From: Eledone cirrhosa
Lineage: Eukaryota
NCBI GenBank assembly: GCA_964016885.1
Contig: OZ024740.1
Span: 298,592,001 to 298,656,000, forward strand
Reading direction: 5' to 3'
DNA length: 64,000 bases
Within the stretch, counting starts at the first letter, position 1; each line of letters begins with the position of its first letter. Positions 1,535 through 61,967 of the stretch are shown here, piece after piece. The position numbers were made by a program, and so were the translations under genes. The notes beneath the pieces were generated by a model. It worked only from the letters and a program-made list of their open reading frames with translations, was not told the origin of the DNA and searched no databases.

Positions 1535-4500
1535 ACAAATCTCAGAATTTGTCAACTCTTATTAATGGTCAGTCCACTTCTACGAACTTCTACGAAATGT
1601 AATGTAAAAATACCATTTTCTCCTTGCCTCCCCACCCTTTGGTTCATTCATCCATATATCTGTATAATCGCCCAGAATCCAAATCGTACTTCTTAATTGC
1701 TATTCTATAATTTTGTCTGGCTGTTCTAAATAATCTTCTCCACGCTAACTACCCCATACCCCTCCTGCCCGCCCCCACTCTCCACCTTTATTATTTGGAC
1801 CAATCACAAGTCAACGGCCTATGCACTTCTGGTTGCTTTTCGATATGATGGATGGACTAAGAAATTTCTGGAGAGCCTGAAGAATCTGGACACTCGAAGA
1901 CAATGCCAAAGATAACGACAAATTCACCTCATGCTGCCGGACGAAAGGGCAAGGCCCCCTCCTCTTTGTTGCGGCCGCGGATGGCCAACATAACCCCAAC
2001 CCCATCCCCCTCACCCCTCCCTGCGCCTCACCCACCAAACGCAATCCAAAACTTCAGAGTTGGTACCATGAATGTAGGCACCTTAAAAGCCGCTATAACG
2101 AGGTTGTAGAAATGCTTGAACATAAGGAGGTTGATGTTTGCTGTATCCAAGAGACCAGGTGGAGGGGTGGGTCTGCTAGATTCATTGTGGGTAAAAAACG
2201 ATGCTATAAGCTTTTCTGGGTGGGAAATGACAATGGGCTGGGTGGGGTAGGAATCATGTTAGCAGAAAAATGGGTGGATAAGATAATAGACGTAAATAGA
2301 GTGAATGACAGAATAATTAAAATAAGACTTGTTCTAAATAGAACTACTGTGACATTAATATCTGTGTACGCACCCCAATTCGGACTTCCTGGCGCTATAA
2401 AAGACAGATTCTATGAGACACTGATGCTCACTACCTCCCAAATAACCGACAGTGACTATATAATTATTGCTGGCGACCTAAATGGTCACGTTGGGTAACA
2501 TTGTGACAGTTATGACGGAATCCACGGAGGCTATGGGTTTGGTACTAGAATTCTGTGACGCAAATAACCTAACTATCTGTAACACTAACTTCAAAAAACG
2601 AGACAATCACTTGATCACCTACAGATCAGGGGAACATACCAGCCAGGTAGATTATATCCTTTCCAGAAGATGTGACAGAGTGTCTGTTGTAAACACTAAA
2701 TCCCTCCCCCATGAAGAATGCACCTCCCAACATAGACTGATAATTAGTGACCTCATAGTCAGGAGGAGACGTACTCGACAGCAGAAGAGGACTATCCTCA
2801 GGAGAAAAATATGGAAGTTAAAGGACCCCACAGCCAGTAATAAATTTAAAAGCATATTACTTGATGCTTTCGACAGTAAGGAAGAGCATTTAGAGTCGTA
2901 CACTAGAGAGGAACAGTGGGAATTCCTGAAAGCAAACCTGCTGATGGCGGCAGACGAAGTCTGTGGCTGGAGCAGGCCTATAGGCAGGAGGAGAGTAATA
3001 TGGTGGTGGAACAGTAAGGTGGAGGAGTCAATTAAGGCCAAAAAGCAGGCTTGGAAAGTATGGCGGGATGGGGGAAGTAGAGAAGACTATCAAGTGGCCA
3101 GGAGGGAAGCTAGGAGACAAGTGTACTTCGCAAGAAGGGAAGCAGAGGAAAGAAAGTTCAAGCATGTTCTACAACGCGAGGACCAAAAACGTGAGGTGTT
3201 CAGGATTGCTAGGCAATGTGTCAAGGAAAACCGTGATATTGTCAGGGAGAAGTGTGTCCTTAATGATGATGGTGTACTTGCCATCACTGACGCTGATAAG
3301 AAGGTAGCTTGGAAGTGTCACTACGAAAGGCTACTAAATGAGGAGAATAAATGGGAGAAAGACAGTCTCCCCCACATTGACCCAATAGAGGGACCAGCAG
3401 TGTTAGTCGAAGGTAGTATAATAAGTAAGGCAATCAAAGATATGAAGACGGGTAAGGCGGCTGGGCCTTCAGAAATAGTTGCTGAAATGCTGAAAGCTTC
3501 TGGAACGGTGGGACACACCATGGTCACCTGGATAGTAAACCAAGTCATACAGAATGGGGTTGTTCCGAAGGACTGGCGTAGCATCATCATCCTTAACTGC
3601 TACAAGGGTAAAGGAGATGCTCTAGATAGGGGAAACTATAGAGGCATTAAGTTAGTTGACCAGGTCATGAAGGTCACAGAAAGAGTTATAGCAGAACTAA
3701 TCAGAGAGCGAATTGATCTAGATGAAATACAGTTCGGGTTTGTGTCAGGTAAAAGTACCACAGACGCTCTTTTCATTGTACGACAAGTACAGGAGAAGTA
3801 CCTAGCTAAAAGTAAACCCCTATACTTAGCCTTTGTCGACTTGGAGAAAGCCTTTGACAGAGTCCCCCGTTCCATTATCTGGTGGGCTCTTAGAAAACTA
3901 GGTGTTGATGAATGGCTTGTGAGAGCTATACAAGCCATGTATAAAGAAACAGTCAGCAAGGTTAGAATTAACAACAAATATAGTGAAGAGTTTAGCGTAA
4001 AAATTTGTGTTCATCAGGGCTCCGTTCTTAGCCCCCTACTATTTATTATTGCCCTTCAGGCTATAACAGTGGAGTTCAAGACTGGCTGCCCATGGGAACT
4101 CCTATATGCAGATGATCTAACGCTCATAGCTGAATCAATGACCGAACTAGAGAAGAAATTCCAAACATGGAAGCATGGCCTAGAAGCAAAAGGCCTTAAA
4201 ATTAACCTGTCTAAGACTAAAGTTCTAGTTTGTAGAAAGGAAAATAGGGCGCCGGTCCCATCCAGGAAATGGCCTTGCCCAGTGTGTAGGAAAGGAGTAG
4301 GTAGAAACTTCATTTTATGTCCCAAATGCAAAGTATGGGTGCATAAAAGATGTAGTGGGATCACAGGTAAGCTAACTAAGAATATAGATTTTATATGTGG
4401 CCGGTGCTCTGGTGCAATAAGTAGCAGCAAGTGCCCACAGAATACTAGCTCATTCCATTGCACAGATGGTTCTATAGAAATAGTGGACAGCTTCCGTTAC

Positions 4501-5446
4501 CTGGGTGACAAAATCAGAAGTGGGGGAGGGTGCTCTGAAAGTACAGTAGCTAGAGTCAGAACTGGATGGAAAAAGTTCAGAGAGCTTATACCACTATTAG
4601 CCGCTAAAGGGTTCTCCCTAAAAATGAAAGGCAGGCTGTATGATGCCTGCATACGAACAGCAATGTTGCATGGCAGTGAGACCTGGGCATTGTGTGCAGA
4701 GGATATACGCAGACTGGAGAGGAACGAAGCTTGGATGCTCCGCTGGATGTGTAATAGTAATATACGTGAACGGCAAAGCATAAACGAACTAAGGGAAAAA
4801 TTAGAAATAAGAGGGATCAGATGTTGTTTACTCGAGAGAAGACTACATTGGCATGGTCACGTGATGCGCATGAAAGACGACAGCTGTATAAAAAAGTGCA
4901 GGGCAATAAAAATAGAAGGTAGCCACAGAGTAGGCAGACCCAGAAAAACCTGGGACGACTTCATAAATTCCGACCTCACACACTTGCACCTCTCCAAGAC
5001 AATGTCACTGGACCGAGATCTTTGGTGCTACACAGTAATACAGAAGACCCGCCTTACCTAAGTACAAAGCGAAACCTACTACAGTCAGTAGGCCCCTCTA
5101 ACAAAATACACCCCCGTCCCACTACCCCCACCCCGTCCACACCACCCCTTTCAATGTAAAAGTTATGTTGGTACCACAACATCCAGCCCGAAACAAATGA
5201 GGTCGTGTAGGCGTCACGATAAAAAAAACACAGTCCATGCTGTAATGTGGCCGTGTAGGTAACACGGTAAAAACCTCCCAGTTCCACACTGTAAATGTGG
5301 TTGGTGTTCGGAAGGGCATCCAGCCGTAGAAAACCCGCCAGACAGTCCTATGCGAGCATGACAACCACTCTTGCCTCAAGTGGGAAAACTCACGTCCAAA
5401 TCCATGCAAGCGTGGAATATGGACGTTAAACGATGATGATGATGAC
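1535..5446 (+). mobile_element. Near-full-length RTE-clade LINE (APE endonuclease + RT + PHD-type Zn finger) with (GAT)n tail; 5' boundary approximate
   Basis: APE motifs (VGTMNVGTL, CCIQETRW, GDLNGHVG, SQHRL), RT motifs (GNYRGIKL, QFGF, FVDLEKAFD, HQGSVLSPLLF, LLYADD), RTE C-terminus (HGSETW...GRPRKTW), tail gatgatgatgatga at ~5432-5445; TA runs on both flanks. Confidence 0.95.
1903..5061 (+). pseudogene. Disrupted RTE ORF (pieces 1903-2109, 2112-2498, 2482-5061)
   Basis: Frameshift near 2090, TAA after GHVG at 2496-2498 and a deletion/frameshift near 2540; the RT-containing 859-aa portion is open. Confidence 0.9.
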
Positions 5447-6891: not shown

Positions 6892-7260
6892 TCAGTATTT
6901 TTTTTCTAAATTTCTATAATGCTTGAAATGTTGACAAGTTCCGAATAATTCTCTTTTCTTATTAATTAAATTACCATAATTGGTAATTATTAATAGAGTT
7001 TCCAAATTGCAAAGATTGCAATTTGGTGAAATGGAAGCGTTTCGATAGGAATCAGAATTCTTTAGTTTACTCCAAGAAATTGAGTATTTAATATTTTTCT
7101 CTTTTAAAGACCATATTAATTGTGATAATGAATTAGAAATTTTTTTATCTGGATTAGAGAATGTATGTTTGTGATTGAAAAAGCGAAACTTAAAGTTCGA
7201 TGAAGTGGCACCTATGTAGTTATAAGTATTATTATTATTTGTCTTAATGGTACATTTATA
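6892..7260 (-). CDS. Penelope-like GIY-YIG endonuclease, 5'-truncated 122-codon open frame without ATG
   Basis: Manual translation: YKCTIKTNNNNTYNYIGATSSNFKFRFFNHKHTFSNPDKKISNSLSQLIWSLKEKNIKYSISWSKLKNSDSYRNASISPNCNLCNLETLLIITNYGNLINKKRELFGTCQHFKHYRNLEKKY*; shares motifs with the fragments at 29671 and 33018. Confidence 0.88.
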   Translation of the reverse strand, partial: YKCTIKTNNNNTYNYIGATSSNFKFRFFNHKHTFSNPDKKISNSLSQLIWSLKEKNIKYSISWSKLKNSDSYRNASISPNCNLCNLETLLIITNYGNLINKKRELFGTCQHFKHYRNLEKKY

Positions 7261-7565: not shown

Positions 7566-8685
7566 AATGCAAAGTATGGGTGCATAAAAGATGTAGTGGG
7601 ATCACAGGTAAGCTAACTAAGAACATAGATTTTACATGTGGCCGGTGCTCTGGTGCAATAAGTAGCAGCAAGTGCCCACAAAATACTAGCTCTTTCAACT
7701 GCGCAGAGGGCTCTATAGAAATAGTGGACAGCTTCCGTTACCTGGGTGACAAAATCAGCAGTGGGGGAGGGTGCTCTGAAAGTACAGTAGCTAGAGTCAG
7801 AACTGGATGGAAAAAGTTCAGAGAGCTTATACCACTATTAGCCGCTAAAGGGTTCTCCCTAAAAATGAAAGGCAGGTTGTATGATGCCTGCATACGAACA
7901 GCAATGTTGCATGGCAGTGAGACCTGGGCATTGTGTGCAGAGGATATACGCAGACTAGAGAGGAACGAAGCTTGCATGCTCCGCTGGATGTGTAATAGTA
8001 ATATATGTGAACGGCAAAGCATAAACGAACTAAGGAAAAAATTAGAAATAAGAGGGATCAGATGTTGTTTACTCGAGAGAAGGCTACGTTGGTATGGACA
8101 CGTGATGCGCATGAAAGTCGATAGCTGTATAACAAAGTGCAGGGCAATAAAGATAGATGGTAGCCACGGAATAGGCAGACCTAGAAAAACCTGGGACGAG
8201 CTGATAAACTCCGACCTCACACACTTACACCTCTCCAAGACAATGTCACTGGACCGAGACCTTTGGCGGTACTCAGTAATAGAGAAGACCCGCCTTACCT
8301 AAATACATAGTAAAACCTACTACAGTCAGTAGGCCCCTCTAACAAAATACACCCCCGTCCCACCACCCCCACCCCATCCACACCGCCCCCTTCTATGTAA
8401 AGTTATGTTGGTGCCACACCATCCAGGCCGAAACAAATGAGATCGTGTAGGTGTCACGACAAAAAAACACAGTCCACGCTGTAATGTGGCCGTGTAGGCA
8501 ACACAGTAAAAACCTCCCAGACCCACACTGTAAATGTGGTTGGTGTTAGGAAGGGCATCCAACTGTAGAAAACCCACCAGACAGTCCTATGCGAGCAAGA
8601 CAATCACTCTTGCCTCAAGTGGGAAAACCCCCGTCCAAACCCATGCAAGCGTGGAACACGGACGTTAAACGTTGATGATGATGAT
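7566..8685 (+). mobile_element. 5'-truncated copy of the same RTE family (ORF 7580-8302), inserted in the right pLTR
   Basis: Highly similar to 4325-5446, with (GAT)n tail; the flanks rejoin to match the left arm. Confidence 0.95.
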
Positions 8686-25188: not shown

Positions 25189-26658
25189 GTGACTTTTGAT
25201 AGTAGGCCCAGTATTAGGAATGAAGTACCATGTATCACTTGGTTTAATACCACATGTTCTTGTGACTTGATAGTAGGCCCAGTATTAGGAGGGAAGTACC
25301 ATGTATCCCTTGGTTTAATACCACATGTTCCTGTGACTTGATAGTATGCCCAGTATTAGGAGATAAGTACCATGTGTCACTTGGTTTAATACCACCACAT
25401 GTGACTTGATAGTAGACCCAGTATTAGGAGATAAGTACAATGTGTCACTTGGTTTAATACCACCACATGTTCCTGTGACTTGATAGTAGACCCAGTATTA
25501 GGAGGGAAGTACCATGTATCACTTGGTTTAATACCACCACATGTTCCTGTGACTTGATAGTAGACCCAGTATTAGGAGGGAAGAATCATGTATCACTTGG
25601 TTTAATACCACTACATGTTCCTGTGACTTGATAGTAGACCCAGTATTAGGAGAGAAGTACCATGTATCACTTGGTTTAATACCACTACATGTTCCTGTGA
25701 CTTGATAGTAGGCCCAGTATTAGGAGGGAAGTACCATGTATCACTTGGTTTAATACCACCACATGTTACTGTGACTTGATAGTAGACCCAGTATTAGGAG
25801 AGAAGTACCATGTATCACTTGGTTTAATACCACTACATGTTCCTGTGACTTGATAGTAGACCCAGTATTAGGAGAGAAGTACCATGTATCACTTGGTTTA
25901 ATACCACCACATGTTCCTGTGACTTGATAGTAGACCCAGTATTAGGAGAGAAGTACCATGTATCACTTGGTTTAATACCACCACATGTTCCTGTGACTTG
26001 ATAGTAGACCCAGTATTAGGAGAGAAGTACCATGTATCACTTGGTTTAATACCACCACATGTTCCTGTGACTTGATAGTACACCCAGTATTATGAGGGAA
26101 GTACCATGTATCACTTGGTTTAATACCACTACATGTTCCTGTGACTTGATAGTAGGTCCAGTATTAGGAGGGAAGTACCATGTATCACTTGGTTTAATAC
26201 CACCAGATGTTCCTGTGGCTTGATAGTAGACCCAGTATTAGGAGGGAAGTACCATGTATCACTTGGTTTAATACCACCACATGTTCCTGTGACTTGATAG
26301 TAGACCCAGTATTAGGAGGGAAGTACCATGTATCACTTGGTTTAATACCACCACATGTTCCTGTGGCTTGATAGTAGACCCAGTATTAGGAGAGAAGTAC
26401 CATGTATCACTTGGTTTAATACCATCACATGTTCCTGTGACTTGATAGTAGACCCAGTATTAGCAGAGAAGTACCATGTATCACTTGGTTTAATACCACC
26501 ACATGTTCCTGTGACTTGATAGTACACCCAGTATTAGGAGGGAAGTACCATGTATCACTTGGTTTATTACCACCACATGTTCCTGTGACTTGATAGTAGA
26601 CCCAGTATTAGGAGGGAAGTACCATGTATCACTTGGTTTAATACCACCAGATGTTCCT
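25189..26658. repeat. 74-bp tandem minisatellite, ~20 copies
   Basis: Unit gtgacttgatagtagacccagtattaggagagaagtaccatgtatcacttggtttaataccaccacatgttcct; period 74 (25475, 25549, ...). Confidence 0.97.
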
Positions 26659-29589: not shown

Positions 29590-29994
29590 GGGTGCAGTTT
29601 TCATAGTGCTAGCACTGAAGTTACATCCACTTGACCGAATCAACAGCATGAGATCAAAACATAAGTAGGTATGTTGGAGGGCCGGTTTAAAGAATGCTTC
29701 CTTAATCATCAGATGACCTTTAGACACTCTGATAAGCGATCATCCATGAAGCTGCCAAGCCATGTATGGTCACACAAGGATGCAGACGTGAATTTCTCCA
29801 CTCAATGGAAAGTTCTAGTTAAATCCAGGCCATACGGAGATGGAACAGTGTCCTGTAAGCTGTGTATTGATGAAAGAGTGAATATCTTGCAGAGGTTATG
29901 TAATAGTACTTGGCTTAACACAAGAGCCAATGTTTTTAATTGCTGTCCCCACACTGTGAAGTATCTGTTACATAACTGGAAAGACCCAGGATAA
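29590..29994 (+). mobile_element. Penelope-like GIY-YIG endonuclease fragment (decayed)
   Basis: VGMLEGRFKECFLNHQMTF...LPSHVWSHKD...QWKVL...CKLCIDE...LNTRANVFNCCPH. Confidence 0.85.
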
Positions 29995-30501
29995 CCATAG
30001 GTCTAACCTGGAATGAACTCAAACGAAAATTGTCTCCTCCACAACAGTCTAATTTGAGTTGTCTCCCTTGTCACCAAACTACTGTCATCTGCTGTGCAGA
30101 ATCCAGTCAACTCATTTATACTTCTGTTCTCACCGCAGCCATATACACAGGTTGAAAATCGGTTTGGTGAAATATGTATCTCCGAGGATGGCTTGCTAAT
30201 TCTTTGTGGAACTAGCCCTAACTGAACTCATCCTTTGGACTGTGTGCTCTTCTTACTACGAATATAACTCCCCATTTTTTTTTACCACTATATATATATA
30301 TATACATATATATAGTGGTAAAATATATATATATATATATATAAATAGGATTTCGCTTCAAGCATAGCTTGATACAAATGTACACAAATTTCGTATTTCT
30401 AAAAAAACACGGTATGTTTACAGGAAACATTTAGGAAGCTGTAGCTATGCAAACACCGGGGCTAACGCCCTCTGGTGGTGTCCAGCAGAAGCAAGGGGGA
30501 C

Positions 30502-30547
30502 AACTGTCTATGCATTTCAGGCTTGACTGGCCTTCATCAGGACAGTC
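30502..30547 (-). ncRNA. Minimal type I hammerhead ribozyme
   Basis: GACUGUC CUGAUGA AGGC CAGUCAA GCCU GAAA UGCA UA GACAGUU. Confidence 0.92.
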
Positions 30548-30827
30548 CCTCCCACCGCTTGCAACTGCTGGACTTGAGAACAGTCAAGAGTATATAGTTT
30601 TCTCGTCTGTGTAAATGAGGCGATTAATCTCATTTGCATATGAAGCTGCATAAGTTGGCTCAACTTATAATAGAATAGAAATAGGATTTCGCTTCAAGCA
30701 TAGCTTGATACAAATATGTATAGAAATTTTGTATTTCTAAAGAAACACGGTATGTTTACAGGAAACATTTAGGAAGCCATAGCTATGCAAACACCCTATA
30801 GTGATGTCCAGCAGAAGCAAGGGGGAC

Positions 30828-30873
30828 AACCGTCTATGCATTTCAGGCTTGACCGGCCTTCATCAGGACGGTC
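30828..30873 (-). ncRNA. Minimal type I hammerhead ribozyme
   Basis: GACCGUC CUGAUGA AGGC CGGUCAA GCCU GAAA UGCA UA GACGGUU. Confidence 0.92.
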
Positions 30874-31013
30874 CCTCCCACCGCTTGCAGCTGCTGGACT
30901 TGAGAACAGTCGAGAATATATAGTTTTCTCATCTGTGTAAATGAAGTGATTAATCTCATTTGCATATGAAGCTGCATTATCAACTCAGAGAAATAATTGA
31001 ACATTAGTCTTAA

Positions 31014-31238: not shown

Positions 31239-31888
31239 TTAAGCCAAAATCTCGATTTGGGTGGGATATAAGCTAGACCGACTAAAATAAGTCAGTTTTA
31301 CTCATACAATTCCTCAACCATGATTTCAGGAATTCAAGAAACATTGATTATTTCAAAGCATTGGAATAACCAATATTGGAAGAATTTAAATTCTGTCATC
31401 GGGGAAAAATTCATTGGAATAAGAGGAGTTATTGAATATAAAGCATACTAGCCATGTCATTGCTGAAACTGCATGGTGTCCAATGGGTTGCGTCATTGAA
31501 TTCCTAAATGAACATATCTCTCTAAATGTATGAGGGAAATATGAAAGGCTTACAGTGATATTGGAAATAGCATCCAAATTTGATAATTCATTAGTGCATA
31601 TATATATATAAGTATGTATACGTACATACATATATGTATACAGACGTACAGTAGTATGTGTATATATATATATATATATATATACATACATGCACGTATA
31701 CATACTTATATTTAAGTAACAGCCGTACTAAGAGTGAGAAATGAAATTTCGTTTCATTTTTTCCGTTTATCGTTTTCGGTACCCCGGCCGATTAACTCAC
31801 TCGATATGCAAATTAGGCTGCTCAGCCGTTAATATGCATAAGGAAAGTATATACTTTCAGACGTTCAACCATCTGGCAGGAAGGTATA

Positions 31889-31929
31889 CGTTGCTGACGA
31901 TAGCTAATAAGCTTGAAACTAGTACAGCG
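31889..31929 (+). ncRNA. Minimal type I hammerhead ribozyme
   Basis: CGUUG CUGACGA UAGCU AAUA AGCUU GAAA CUAG UA CAGCG. Confidence 0.88.
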
Positions 31930-32075
31930 TTCCTTTCTCAGTGTTGAACAAATGAGCAACGGTGGTTGCTAGACACTGTACGGTTTAATTCGGGATGTTT
32001 GTTTACAAACACACCGAGCATTATAATAAATGTTCGGTGAATCCATACGTACATATATATATATATGTGTGCATG

Positions 32076-32111
<36 letters not shown>

Positions 32112-32212
32112 CTACTGTACGTCTGTATACATATATGTATGTACGTATACATACTTATATTTAAGTAACAGCCGTTCTAAGAGTGAGAAATGAATTTCGT
32201 TTCATTTTTTCC

Positions 32213-32252
<40 letters not shown>

Positions 32253-32678: not shown

Positions 32679-32815
32679 CCCTCTTCCTGCTATATCAAGC
32701 GTTAACCTAATATATCCCTTCCATATATTGTACCGATTGTGTTGCTCTTCCTGTTGACCTTTTACATACATATATATATATAGAAGTGGTTACACAACAG
32801 TTAGTTCACCATACC

Positions 32816-32851
32816 GAGAACAATTGTTTCACCTTAGCGGATCCTCAGCTC
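32816..32851 (-). ncRNA. Minimal hammerhead 3' of the GIY-YIG fragment
   Basis: GAG CUGAGGA UCC GCUAA GGU GAAA CAAUUG UU CUC. Confidence 0.8.
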
Positions 32852-33017
32852 ATAATGGACATGGTTATATGGAACAGGAAGGACAACCTTACGAACGCGC
32901 ATGCGCAGAAACGATCACTTCACGCAAGCAATACTAAATTGCGTGCGAGAGGTGTAAGGGAGATAACTGCGAAAGTCCGAAAGTTTCTAGTTGATAAGAA
33001 AATTAGGATGTTGTAAT

Positions 33018-33300
33018 TCAATCTGGAGCTTTGTAGTTATGTAAGAGGTCTTTCCAGACGTGTGGACAACGTGTGAAGAATTCATTTCTCATGTTTAGGC
33101 AATCACTATTGTGTAATCTCTTTAGAATATTTATTCGTTCATCAATACATAGTCCACACAACGGATTGCCCCTTGCGTATGGTTTGGACTTAGTGATGGC
33201 TTTCCATTGGATGGAGTAGTCTATACTTGAGTCCTTGAGAGACCATACGTGGCTCGCGAGTTTTGTGGATGAACGTCTGTCCGGGTACCTAAATGTACTC
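33018..33300 (-). mobile_element. Penelope-like GIY-YIG endonuclease C-terminal fragment
   Basis: TFRYPDRRSSTKLASHVWSLKD...IQWKAI...CGLCIDE...LNMRNEFFTRCPH. Confidence 0.88.
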
Positions 33301-33374
33301 GGACCCACCAGTCGACCTTTAGGTATCTGGACAGACGTTCATCCATGAAACTTCAGGGTTAACTGGACCATCCT

Positions 33375-33550
33375 AAGCCTGAAATGCATAGAAGGTTGTC
33401 CCCCTTGCTTCTGCTGGACATCACCAGAGGGCGTTAGCCCCCCCCCACCTGGTGTTTGCATAGCTACGGCTTCCTAATACCGTATTTTCTTGGAGAAACG
33501 AAATATTTATACATATTGTATAAAGCTATGCTTGAAGCGAAATCCTATTT
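33375..33550 (+). mobile_element. Partial third copy of the retrozyme-like repeat (3' half of the HHR onward)
   Basis: aagcctgaaatgcatagaaggttgtcccccttgcttctgctggaca...cttgaagcgaaatcctattt is the reverse complement of ~30343-30524. Confidence 0.88.
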
Positions 33551-33563
33551 CATATATATATAT

Positions 33564-34635
33564 AATAAAGTATGTCCATAGAATCATTTGATAAAATATA
33601 TACATTATTTCCTCTCCCAATCAGCATAATCAACCACACAAAAAACCAATTAAACAAGGCTATAAGATTAAAAGACACCCATGAAGAAATAATAGATAAA
33701 TAAACGACAGCTGTCTATTCGCGATCAACAGCTATAGAATATTTACTCAGCACTTCTAATAGCATGTGGAAATCGATTAAATATATCGTCAACCATACAC
33801 AATTAGGTATAAAATCAAATTTAGAAGAAAAAATGTATATAAACATACCAGAATTACGTTTCTACCCCATGGGGTTTCATTTGCTTTTGGAAATATCCGA
33901 TCAAGGATAAATTCACGAGCTTCGAAATCATCAGGAAATAAACTCACTTGGACGAAGATTTTTCTTAAATGATCCCCGCCAGAAACAAATTCAAAATGGC
34001 TAAGAACTGTGACATGGCAGTGGTCAAGTCAGAAAGAATGTGATTGGTGCCTTACGGCGAGTGGGCTGGTTGCTAGAAAGCACAGCCTAATATTGCCTAA
34101 ATTGCATCTCAACCATATGGGAGATTATCAAATATAAAGATTTACATATACATAAACTAGACAAAGTCATTGATATATATATATATATGTTTTTGGCAAC
34201 CATTCATGATGTGGCTCAATGACGAATTAATTAATTAAATAATCAACAATCAGAGCAATATACAATAAAGTATGTCCATAGAATCATTTGATAAAATATA
34301 TACATTATTTCCTCTCCCAATCAGCATAATCAACCACACAAAAAAACCAATTAAACAAGGCTATAAGATTAAAAGACATCTATGAAGAAATAATAGATAA
34401 ATAAACGACAGCTGTCTATTCGCGATCAACAGCTATAGAATATTTACTCAGCATTTCTATTAGCATGTGGAAATCGATTAAATATATCGTCAACCATACA
34501 CAATTAGGTATAAAATCAAAGTTAGAAGAAAAAATGTATATAAACATACCAAAATTACGTTTCTACCCCATGGGATTTCATTCGCTTTTGGAAATATCCG
34601 ATCAAGGATAAATTCACGAACTTCGAAATCATCAG
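33564..34635. repeat. ~370-bp direct duplication (33564-33934 and 34264-34635)
   Basis: Near-identical blocks starting aataaagtatgtccatagaatc. Confidence 0.95.
33859..33938 (-). ncRNA. Hammerhead with long stem II and 10-nt palindromic stem III
   Basis: UUUC CUGAUGA UUUCG...CAAAU GAAA CCCCAUGGGG UA GAAA; second copy at 34560-34635 has UUUCG/CGAAU pairing but a disrupted stem I. Confidence 0.7.
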
Positions 34636-59771: not shown

Positions 59772-60636
59772 CCTACTTACTTTATATCATCATCAGCATT
59801 GTCGATTAACGTCTATCTTCCACACTAGCATGGGTTAGACGGGTTTGTCCCAATTATAAGCAAGTTGGGTCAGGAGACCATGTCTCGCTCATATAGGAGA
59901 GTTTTTGGCTGGTTTTCTACGGCTGGATGCCCTTCCTAATGCCAACCACATTTACAGTGTGTGCTGGGTACTTTTTGTTGTGACACCTACATGATATATA
60001 TATATATTTAGTGAAAAATAAGTATGCATAATGGCATTTTGCAACAATTTACAACAGATAGGGGAGCTGATATTGAGAGAGAGAGAGAGAGGATTGAATT
60101 TTATCAATTCCCTTATCTCTCCACCTTGCGTTCTCCAGAGAACCAGGGGTGGATAAAATAATGTTCGGAAGACCATCTGAAGAGGCCAGATTGATACTAT
60201 GGAACCAACACACTGCATAGTCGTCAAACCCATTGAAACATTTATAATGGAAAATTTCCGAATAAATTATTGTAAAAATCCATTATGTATACTCAGCCTT
60301 GGACACCAGATATAATCCGAGATGCTTCAGGATGTTGGGTGCTTATCTCAGGATACTTCAAAATCTACCAGTTTGAGTCATCATCATCTTCGTTTAACGT
60401 CCATCTTCCACGCTAGCATGGGTTAGACATTTAAGTGTTGGATACAATGTCCTGATTGGTCGTCTACCCACATATAATATAATATAAAACTCATAAGCAC
60501 TTGAAGAATGGTCACTAATTTGTATTCTGGAGGTATGGTCAAATTTGGGCCTTGAAACCTTGGGCAGCGACTTTGTTCTGTGTATGAATATAAATAAATA
60601 ATATAGTATATATATGTGTGTATATATATATATATA

Positions 60637-60748
60637 TGACATACACCTATGGTCACGTAAATGTAAATAGACTATGTGTGCGTGTATATATATATATACA
60701 CACACACACATAGTCTGTTTACATTTATGTGACCATAGGTGTATGTCA
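60637..60748. repeat. Near-perfect palindrome centred on (TA)n
   Basis: tgacatacacctatggtcacgtaaatgtaaatagactatgtgtg / cacacatagtctgtttacatttatgtgaccataggtgtatgtca. Confidence 0.9.
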
Positions 60749-61967
60749 CTGTCTATGCATGATTATAGATTTATATGTGTGTGTATGTGTCAGTATTTCA
60801 ACATAAAGAGTATGTTTGTAAGTTTCTATAATCATCGTAACAGCACTACAATATATTTTCTATAAATAAATTAATTTAGGTAATACATCATTTTAAGATC
60901 ACAGAGAACTGACAGTATGTACGATGATAGAAAATGGCATTTTTTTTTTCAATTGTATCAACATAATCATTATCTATACCGACAAAATATATCTCTGAAA
61001 AATATACATTATTAAAAAGTTATGAAGAAACTAAGTCAGGTATGTGTATGGGTGTGTGTGTAGTTCTCTATATTTGTGTTGTATTTTGTATTTGTATCTT
61101 TATGTATGTGCATAACTGCAATGTATTGTCCCTACCTCAATTTGTTTCCTCACAGCTTCTGCAAAATTGCATATTTTGCAGATATATTTTTTAAATGTGA
61201 ATATGATAAGTTTTTGAAATATTTAAATATTCACTCACGGAAATTACCGGCAGTATCCATATGTATCCAGATATTTTGCCGCCTTTATTATATTGATGTT
61301 GAAGTTGGTGAAAATCAGCAAAATAACGACCTTGAATATAAGTCGACCCCCACCCCCTCTCCCCTTCCCTTCAATTCATCATCTTTTTTTTTTTTTCACA
61401 TATTTATATATGGTGGTTCTGTTTTTGTTTTAATTTTTATTAGGCTGATGACAGATGAATGTCTTCTAGATAGGTTGTCAATCTAGCCAAGTTAACTTTC
61501 CTAAATCATCTGTTACTTTTGCCCAACAGTGATGTGAATTGAGGCAATGTAGAAGTAAAGTATTTTATCTAGAAATACAATTATGTGCTTGCTCATGTTC
61601 TATGTTCAGATAATTCACTACTAAACGTTGCTCAGTCAACCAGCTGCTACAACTGTCATGTTTTTTTGTGTGGCTCCAATACAATACAAGACAAGTTGCC
61701 TATCTTAGTCAAAAGTCTTTTTGTGCTCTTTCTTAGTTTTTAAAAATTATTATTGTTGTAGCATTGGACAAAGTCTTTTACAATAGTTATGATTCTTTAC
61801 ATTCCAAGTTCAAATCTTGTTACGGTTATCTTTGTTTTCACCCTTCAGAGGTTGATAAAATAAAGTACCAGTCATGTACCAGGGTTGATTTAATCAACAT
61901 ACCCCTTCCTTAAAATATAGCACAAAACTTACATTTGAAACTATTATTATTATTATTGAGCACCTTA

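Follow-up and report, generated by a model that had tools for sequence, protein, structure and literature searches.

Metazoan non-LTR retrozymes have been defined as non-coding tandem repeats with a unit of a few hundred nucleotides, a GC content below 45% and one type I hammerhead ribozyme per unit, with a self-paired monomer that leaves the ribozyme free, thousands of copies per genome and co-existing Penelope-like elements (PLEs) (PMC7229834). The available text of that study demonstrates circular RNAs in mussel, coral and axolotl, and proposes PLEs as the movers. Newt satellite 2 and axolotl HHR_Amex1 have units of ~330 nt and a 1-bp helix III with a palindromic tetraloop, and their cleavage is dimer-dependent; newt satellite 2 carries an internal snRNA-type Pol II promoter, as cited in PMC2220036 and PMC6765202. 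The hammerhead repeats of schistosomes have a Pol III promoter (PMC2220036; PMC6765202), and in Sm-alpha each unit consists of promoter then hammerhead, so that tandem copies are needed to keep the promoter (PMC6765202). On these accounts, internal promoters read by either polymerase have precedent. Hammerheads with a palindromic helix III are also described from the terminal pseudo-LTRs (pLTRs) of PLEs, which form partial tandems and inverted 5'-truncated copies and insert at (TA)n targets (PMC4209133; PMC8557442; bioRxiv 10.64898/2026.07.22.740005). The last of these, as far as its text is accessible, derives vertebrate retrozymes from pLTRs and reports in vitro cleavage of one of nine predicted Xenopus dimers.

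Here we describe a hammerhead-repeat dimer in a window of 64,000 nt from the cephalopod Eledone cirrhosa (assembly GCA_964016885.1, contig OZ024740.1, positions 298,592,001 to 298,656,000). Its unit, hereafter family A, shares the listed features of the metazoan non-LTR retrozymes. It differs from those of PMC7229834 in that it is mostly dispersed as insertions of 0.25-2 units with 5' inversions, and in that it is known here from sequence alone; and it carries an octamer-type motif and a TATA box, whereas retrozymes have no evident promoters according to the available text of a review (PMC7761336). The resemblance to newt satellite 2 and HHR_Amex1, in a different phylum, is one of description only and covers unit length and helix III; unlike those repeats, family A has a TATA box, and its motif is the element of host U6, RNase MRP and tRNA-Sec genes, not of U2 or U5. 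From schistosome Sm-alpha, whose Pol III promoter consists of tRNA-like A and B boxes, it differs in that no such boxes were seen by eye. The likeness to PLEs and their hammerheads covers all the traits given above. Unlike PLE pLTRs, the unit has no ORF and is not homologous to the PLE terminal repeats examined, and a search of 38 PLE loci, retrieved with a single query, gave 34 hammerheads in PLE terminal repeats, none of them preceded by the motif.

The Two-Unit Locus and Its Ribozymes

The minus strand of 30343-30986 contains just under two head-to-tail units with a period of 326 nt (Table 1). A head-to-tail repeat of a ~330-bp non-coding unit had been proposed in a first-pass annotation of the window, and TRF (30339-30977, period 326, 1.9 copies, 89% matches), alignment and profile all confirm it. 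The upstream unit is truncated at its 5' end in the linker and has a 12-nt deletion past the ribozyme; the downstream unit stops at the usual family A 3' end, with the end motif at 30343-30359. Only stop-to-stop frames of 50-70 aa are present, and the GC content of the region is 0.37. The dimer ends within a (TA)n tract that is likely its insertion target, and no target-site duplication could be seen where its 5' end joins the flank. In view of its pair of intact hammerheads, a non-coding low-GC unit whose period falls within the 150-450 nt of such elements, and a genome-wide family, the locus is a non-LTR retrozyme dimer, a known kind, as that annotation had suggested. A scan of a phage collection and metagenomes gave no match.

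Table 1. Features of the dimer and its neighbours in the window
Feature	Position	Strand	Remarks
Upstream family A unit	30679..30986	-	Profile match positions 13-323, and alignment
Downstream full unit, 336 nt	30343..30678	-	Profile match 1-323
Octamer-type motif (11 nt), upstream unit	30955..30965	-	Likely promoter element
TATA box, upstream unit	30917..30922	-	43 nt past motif start
Type I hammerhead 1	30828..30873	-	Predicted cut after AUA, 30835/30834
Extended helix I	30806..30899	-	30884-30899 pairs with 30806-30821 past internal loop (fold)
Octamer-type motif, second unit	30629..30639	-	Inside predicted monomer
TATA box, second unit	30591..30596	-	43 nt past motif start
Type I hammerhead 2	30502..30547	-	Predicted cut 30509/30508; stem I with both CpG-type changes
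Monomer or circle of 326 nt (predicted)	30509..30834	-	Ends paired; 62% of bases paired as circle
(TA)n tract at dimer 3' end	30289..30342	.	Shared tail-to-tail with PLE fragment on left
5'-truncated PLE end	29620..30288	+	GIY-YIG region to stop at 29994, then own 3' UTR
Family B retrozyme	31585..32218	+	~449-nt period; ends in (AT)n
Chimeric insertion	32763..33551	.	PLE 3' end, inverted PLE piece, family A part

The two hammerheads expected 326 nt apart on the minus strand are found there. In each, CUGAUGA is followed by a stem II of 4 bp that closes a 7-nt loop, by GAAA, and by a palindromic AUGCAU and an AUA triplet. Both copies thus have the type I core (CUGANGA, GAAA and an NUH triplet, with three helices), and stem I (7/7) and stem II (4/4) are fully paired. 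Their earlier description as perfect minimal hammerheads is right for the core, which is intact in both, and wrong for the class: a min-HHR has no helix III or loop 3, whereas here a 1-bp helix III is capped by the palindromic tetraloop UGCA, and helix I runs in the predicted fold past an internal loop into 5 + 9 further base pairs. Hammerheads of this build are classed as canonical metazoan type I, as distinct from the min-HHR, by Cervera and de la Pena (2014; PMC4209133). The AUGCAU palindromes of the two hammerheads can pair as a 6-bp duplex, the dimer form that the available text of the same paper reports for such motifs (PMC4209133).

Both ribozyme regions fold better than shuffled sequences (z -3.5 and -4.0; 0/200 shuffles as good). 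The 326-nt monomer from 30834 to 30509, as already proposed, follows from the predicted cut sites; it out-folds all 100 shuffles (z -4.2) and its ends pair. Rfam gave no hammerhead among 150 of the 192 rows listed for the window, and none among the four rows obtained for 30350-31000 at E up to 10. The dimer RNA would be expected to cleave itself into the 326-nt monomer, which would likely close into a circle.

Other parts of the window contain a 74-bp minisatellite (25196-26658, ~20 copies, 94% matches) and LINE-like endonuclease and reverse transcriptase frames of 205 and 859 aa, with a second 3' fragment (1881-5061 and 7568-8302, plus strand), which resemble an RTE-type element. A long near-perfect hairpin surrounds a microsatellite core at 60635-60750, where miRNA models match below threshold only.

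Stem I Differences and Covariation

One stem I pair differs between the two hammerheads at both bases with pairing kept, and this had been put forward as a compensatory change. Across 231 ribozyme-spanning copies the pair is C-G in 180, C-A in 21, U-G in 17 and U-A in three, one of which is the dimer locus. The left base alone is changed in 24 copies, the right alone in 24 and both in three, against 3.2 expected (Fisher P 0.64); among 88 rows chosen without regard to the ribozyme there are no double changes, against 0.7 expected. The alignment behind the larger count retained 231 of 418 rows, 187 being dropped as not spanning the ribozyme, and used L001 in place of the three rows from the window. 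Family A columns change at a rate of 0.149 at CpG, 0.092 at other C/G and 0.057 at A/T, and 659 of 1,029 changes at CpG columns are C>T or G>A. As both bases of the pair lie in CpG and double changes occur at the level of independent mutation, the stem I difference is read as decay, and its CpG context and chance-level frequency rule it out as a sign of selection.

CpG decay was in turn ruled out for the difference in loop II, where the upstream copy carries a private A-to-G change. True covariation does occur elsewhere. In stem II, G-C is replaced by A-U in 16 of the 231 rows, which form one subfamily and so probably record a single event. It is also seen between families, as the stems of families B and C (described below) are wholly different from those of family A and are still paired.

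Family A and Its Relatives in the Genome

A search of the 3.0-Gb genome with the unit gave 2,965 first-look candidates, and the best other copies are 84-91% identical. Exact patterns counted genome-wide give at least 212 ribozyme cores and at least 1,171 3' ends (controls 0), both of them lower bounds. The loci examined number 183, of which 103 are non-redundant and chosen on the unit or ribozyme and 80 were chosen on the 3' end; each search contributed loci from among the first 100 places in its listing, and hence they lie mostly on contigs 1-3. Duplicates were removed beforehand (17/120 in the ribozyme set, 12 of them from one segmental repeat, and 5/85 in the 3'-end set). Seven near-identical copies spaced ~60 kb apart (L002-L008, G000:C1 143.35-143.80 Mb) come from a large tandem segmental repeat.

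Family A arrays reach at most ~2.2 units. Tandem ribozyme pairs occur at 7 of the 80 and 9 of the 103 loci (16 in 183), counted by motif, profile chain counts being inflated by the unit's own inverted repeat. Of 95 ribozymes in the unbiased 3'-end set, 47 are intact, and two intact ribozymes stand in tandem at 4/80 loci, the rarer kind to which the dimer belongs. Ribozyme columns are not better conserved than their flanks, which indicates that most copies decay neutrally. Family A is old and decaying; the dimer locus, one of a small number in which both ribozymes are intact, may or may not be transcribed today.

About 800 nt from the dimer lies a retrozyme of a second family, B, with the same layout and a different ribozyme: motif at 31806-31816, TATA box at 31848-31853 and, at 31889-31929, a type I hammerhead with a GUA triplet and the palindrome ACUAGU. 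Family B gave 1,179 first-look candidates, and its younger variants form tandem arrays of 100% identical units. A third family, C, is built of 466-469-nt units, 14 to ~30 of which make up an array at 99% identity, and these arrays are the best candidates for currently active retrozymes. They were seen at L279-L286 (G000:C1 ~5.738-5.752 Mb) and L363, and their stem II shows covariation from one array to another. Families B and C are mutually related, and T5-T7 runs occur in both; the 30 best BLAST rows include no match between these two and family A. At L362:963-1110 the same motif, with a TATA box at 40 nt, is followed by a degenerate hammerhead whose helix III has 4 bp; it possibly represents a fourth, older family.

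An Octamer-TATA Layout and Its Counterpart in Host Genes

If such units spread through a genome, what transcribes them? Read-through transcription had been assumed for this locus, and that account is incomplete: it missed the layout within each unit, where the motif is followed by a TATA box 43 nt past its start and by the ribozyme core 56 nt past the TATA. The octamer and TATA of each unit are likely a built-in promoter, for which a start site near 30892 is predicted if the TATA box lies at -30.

The 11 nt of the dimer motif at 30955..30965 are identical (11/11) to those before a U6 gene (L031) and the RNase MRP gene (L287). In host genes the motif lies at -76 to -79 and the TATA box at -30/-31 (upstream regions of L031, L032, L033, L101, L287, L372 and L373). 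Both precede 7 of the 25 U6 matches viewed, in three locus types; the other 18, without the motif, comprise four with an insertion and 14 that are pseudogene-like. In some genes (L037, L038, L041 and L042) of a U6 tandem array on contig 19 a repeat is inserted between motif and TATA. The motif also precedes the best of eight U6atac matches (one mismatch, by eye), the single RNase MRP gene (1/1) and both full tRNA-Sec genes, and it is absent upstream of U2 (0/6 loci) and U5 (0/9 loci). Upstream of U2 and U5 there are two other motifs, at about -88 and -57, along with a TATA-like box.

A motif-TATA-core pattern has 27,123 matches genome-wide and none in the reversed control; these are copies of a few families and not independent cases. 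The first 100 matches listed comprise 55 of family C, 39 of B, five of A and one degenerate other, where A and B match by construction, the pattern having been built on them, and C was not used. Among 133 units measured across the three families, 131 have a motif-TATA spacing of 42-43. In host Pol III genes it is 46-48, so that the units are 4-5 nt shorter and fall outside that range.

For the polymerase, Pol II is given an even chance, Pol III a clearly smaller though substantial one, and the lack of any promoter a small one. Pol II is placed ahead of Pol III because none of the Pol III genes seen has so short a spacing and because the sister families have T5-T7 runs. In the strongest competing account the retrozyme has a genuine Pol III promoter of the U6 type; most of its transcripts would stop at the T-rich end of the unit, and only read-through would yield dimers. 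It would explain the 11/11 identity to the U6 and RNase MRP motifs, the absence of the motif from U2 and U5, and the one preferred 3' end at a T-rich tract, with T4-T6 in 11 of 16 natural units, and the Pol III-transcribed hammerhead repeats of schistosomes (PMC2220036; PMC6765202) offer a parallel. It is at odds with the spacing, 4-5 nt shorter than in U6, U6atac, RNase MRP and tRNA-Sec genes, and with families B and C, whose arrays are young and near-identical (99-100%) in spite of their T5-T7 runs. A further point against it is that the bases flanking the octamer in the units may simply reflect the POU consensus. We regard the Pol III account as possible and somewhat unlikely.

The 326-nt monomer itself (30509..30834) has no run of four T, and T4 or longer is found in 12 of 15 other natural units and in the dimer locus's own second unit. 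Avoidance of T4 in the monomer was considered as a sign of Pol III and set aside as not significant (221/2000 shuffles).

Insertion Marks and Penelope-Like Elements

Family A insertions bear the marks of PLEs, and the copies end in (TA)n. A head-to-head inverted, 5'-truncated copy is present at 50/80 loci of the 3'-end set and 52/103 of the ribozyme/unit set (57/103 when counted by BLAST), and a microsatellite follows 116/138 and 123/168 chains. Inversions and (TA)n targets are reported for PLE insertions in the available texts of PMC8557442 and its preprint. Two preferred internal AU-rich 3' ends account for 57 and 50 of 174 anchored copies. No chain ends 3' at the predicted cleavage site (0/138 and 0/168), and simple 5' ends do not pile up there (3/38, against 2.2 expected). 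The template was therefore not a cleaved linear monomer read from end to end.

The PLE end to the left of the dimer (61% identity to the L219 PLE protein) is a separate insertion on the opposite strand. To the right, a chimeric insertion consists of a PLE 3' end on the minus strand (~32777-33296, 95% to L219), followed by a short stretch of PLE in inverted orientation (33302-33350) and, on the plus strand, by the 3' portion of one family A unit (~33355-33551), with (TA)n at both outer ends. A ~400-nt direct duplication adjoins it (33558-34635, 700-nt spacing, 95-97% identical). A second head-to-head PLE-unit fusion with (TA)n outside, at L336/L365, involves another PLE family, and at L020 PLE and unit are fused in sense. 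We read these fusions as probable products of twin-priming or template switching, and the three cases suggest that PLE enzymes may act on unit RNA.

The 3' terminal repeat of the neighbouring PLE contains a hammerhead (window ~32800-32860, minus strand) that is kept in other copies, and no octamer motif was found upstream of it. A more divergent PLE endonuclease fragment, the third in the window, lies at 6916-7215 on the minus strand (~35% identity). Pfam gave no family for four window ORFs or two long PLE ORFs; we took these elements for PLEs from reverse transcriptase and GIY-YIG motifs recognised in the sequence, and the assignment also draws on Atlas look-alikes with RVT_1 and GIY-YIG.

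In another account the copies arise from linear multimeric RNA with no circle, the element behaving as a short non-autonomous PLE whose ribozyme only trims or is a relic. Arrays of family A rarely exceed two units and tandem pairs are as infrequent as given above; a linear read-through template explains such short arrays (up to ~2.2 units) as well as a circle does, and uncleaved oligomers have been proposed as a PLE template (PMC6765202, in its available text). A linear route would, however, lose the first promoter in each round, yet 78/138 chains join pre-start sequence to a downstream part, a count that may include some self-complementary mis-hits, and the mussel, coral and axolotl retrozymes do form circles (PMC7229834). 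On balance we find the linear route doubtful.

A Proposed Cycle

The reading that we favour, and hold to be reasonably probable, is that the locus is a two-unit copy of a dispersed hammerhead repeat in which octamer and TATA likely act as promoter. Its RNA would cut itself to a 326-nt monomer, which would likely circularise, and PLE enzymes are the likely agents of its re-insertion at (TA)n. The first step of this cycle builds on the observed motif and TATA box in every full unit, the motif also standing before type 3 Pol III genes of the host. Transcription would start ~25 nt ahead of hammerhead 1 and continue through the promoter of the next unit. The two palindromes would then pair, and, to judge from known type I ribozymes, only tandem RNA would be cleaved, since a 1-bp helix III needs palindrome pairing. 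A long end-to-end helix could hold the 5'-OH and cyclic-phosphate ends together for ligation. PLE reverse transcriptase would prime at the AU-rich internal sites and copy across the cleavage site, so that a copy longer than one unit would regain the promoter. The PLE-type insertion marks and the PLE-unit fusions are the observed part of re-insertion.

Could the octamer and TATA serve no promoter function at all, any expression being read-through from neighbours and the motif being kept for RNA structure? The family A motif forms one arm of a predicted hairpin, and retrozymes seem to have no promoters in the view of the review cited above (PMC7761336, available text). Nor do 5' ends pile up at the predicted start: simple 5' ends there number 2/38 against 2.2 expected and 4/64 against 3.7, and an apparent pile-up nearby (17/106, P 0.001) was rejected as an artefact of the unit's inverted repeat, being gone in simple truncations. 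Against this, motif and near-fixed TATA distance recur in families without BLAST similarity to family A, the same motif stands before host genes of all four type 3 classes, and a 326-nt unit would contain such an 11-mer by chance with a probability of ~0.001; we judge a promoter-less unit improbable.

A last alternative, raised in the first-pass annotation itself, takes the unit for the pLTR of a coding PLE and the dimer for a pLTR-only remnant, and although PLE fragments flank the dimer, PLE coding sequence lies nearby at 18/183 loci and Xenopus retrozymes are homologous to pLTRs (bioRxiv 10.64898/2026.07.22.740005, accessible text), it is very improbable, and largely refuted for PLEs detectable with one protein query, because with that query no locus (0/183) has a PLE RT-EN ORF running in sense into the unit, family A units being preceded by the end of another unit or by unrelated DNA, and because the PLE families followed carry their own, different 3' repeats, that of the neighbouring PLE having its own hammerhead.

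Implications for Retrozyme Biology

The suggestion that this is a cephalopod retrozyme family, perhaps undescribed, stands in so far as our literature search found no paper on cephalopod retrozymes and needs qualifying in that retrozymes are known from molluscs (mussel). The main text of PMC7229834 does not mention cephalopods, octopus or squid, and the available text of a 2026 octopus repeat annotation (PMC13282606) mentions neither ribozymes nor hammerheads. The same search, whose coverage excludes most subscription papers and supplements, found no U6-type element in retrozymes, and on that footing a promoter-like layout common to tens of thousands of units is unreported.

Taken alone, the dimer locus is one old copy of a known class. 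With more than 27,000 units in at least three families, it can be proposed, tentatively and at somewhat less than even confidence, that the circle encodes a promoter that was captured from U6-type genes of the host and had its spacing changed by half a helical turn, that insertions longer than a unit would express themselves, and that the PLE fusions would be direct genomic evidence of copying by PLEs. As a by-product, the analysis defines an upstream element common to the host's U6, U6atac, RNase MRP and tRNA-Sec genes, of use in building vectors for small-RNA expression. The papers of 2020 assumed promoter-less read-through and only proposed PLEs as partners, so that both the abundant transcription of retrozymes and their mover are at issue. 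The fixed motif-TATA-hammerhead layout makes the question of transcription testable, and the PLE-unit fusions point at the mobilising enzyme.
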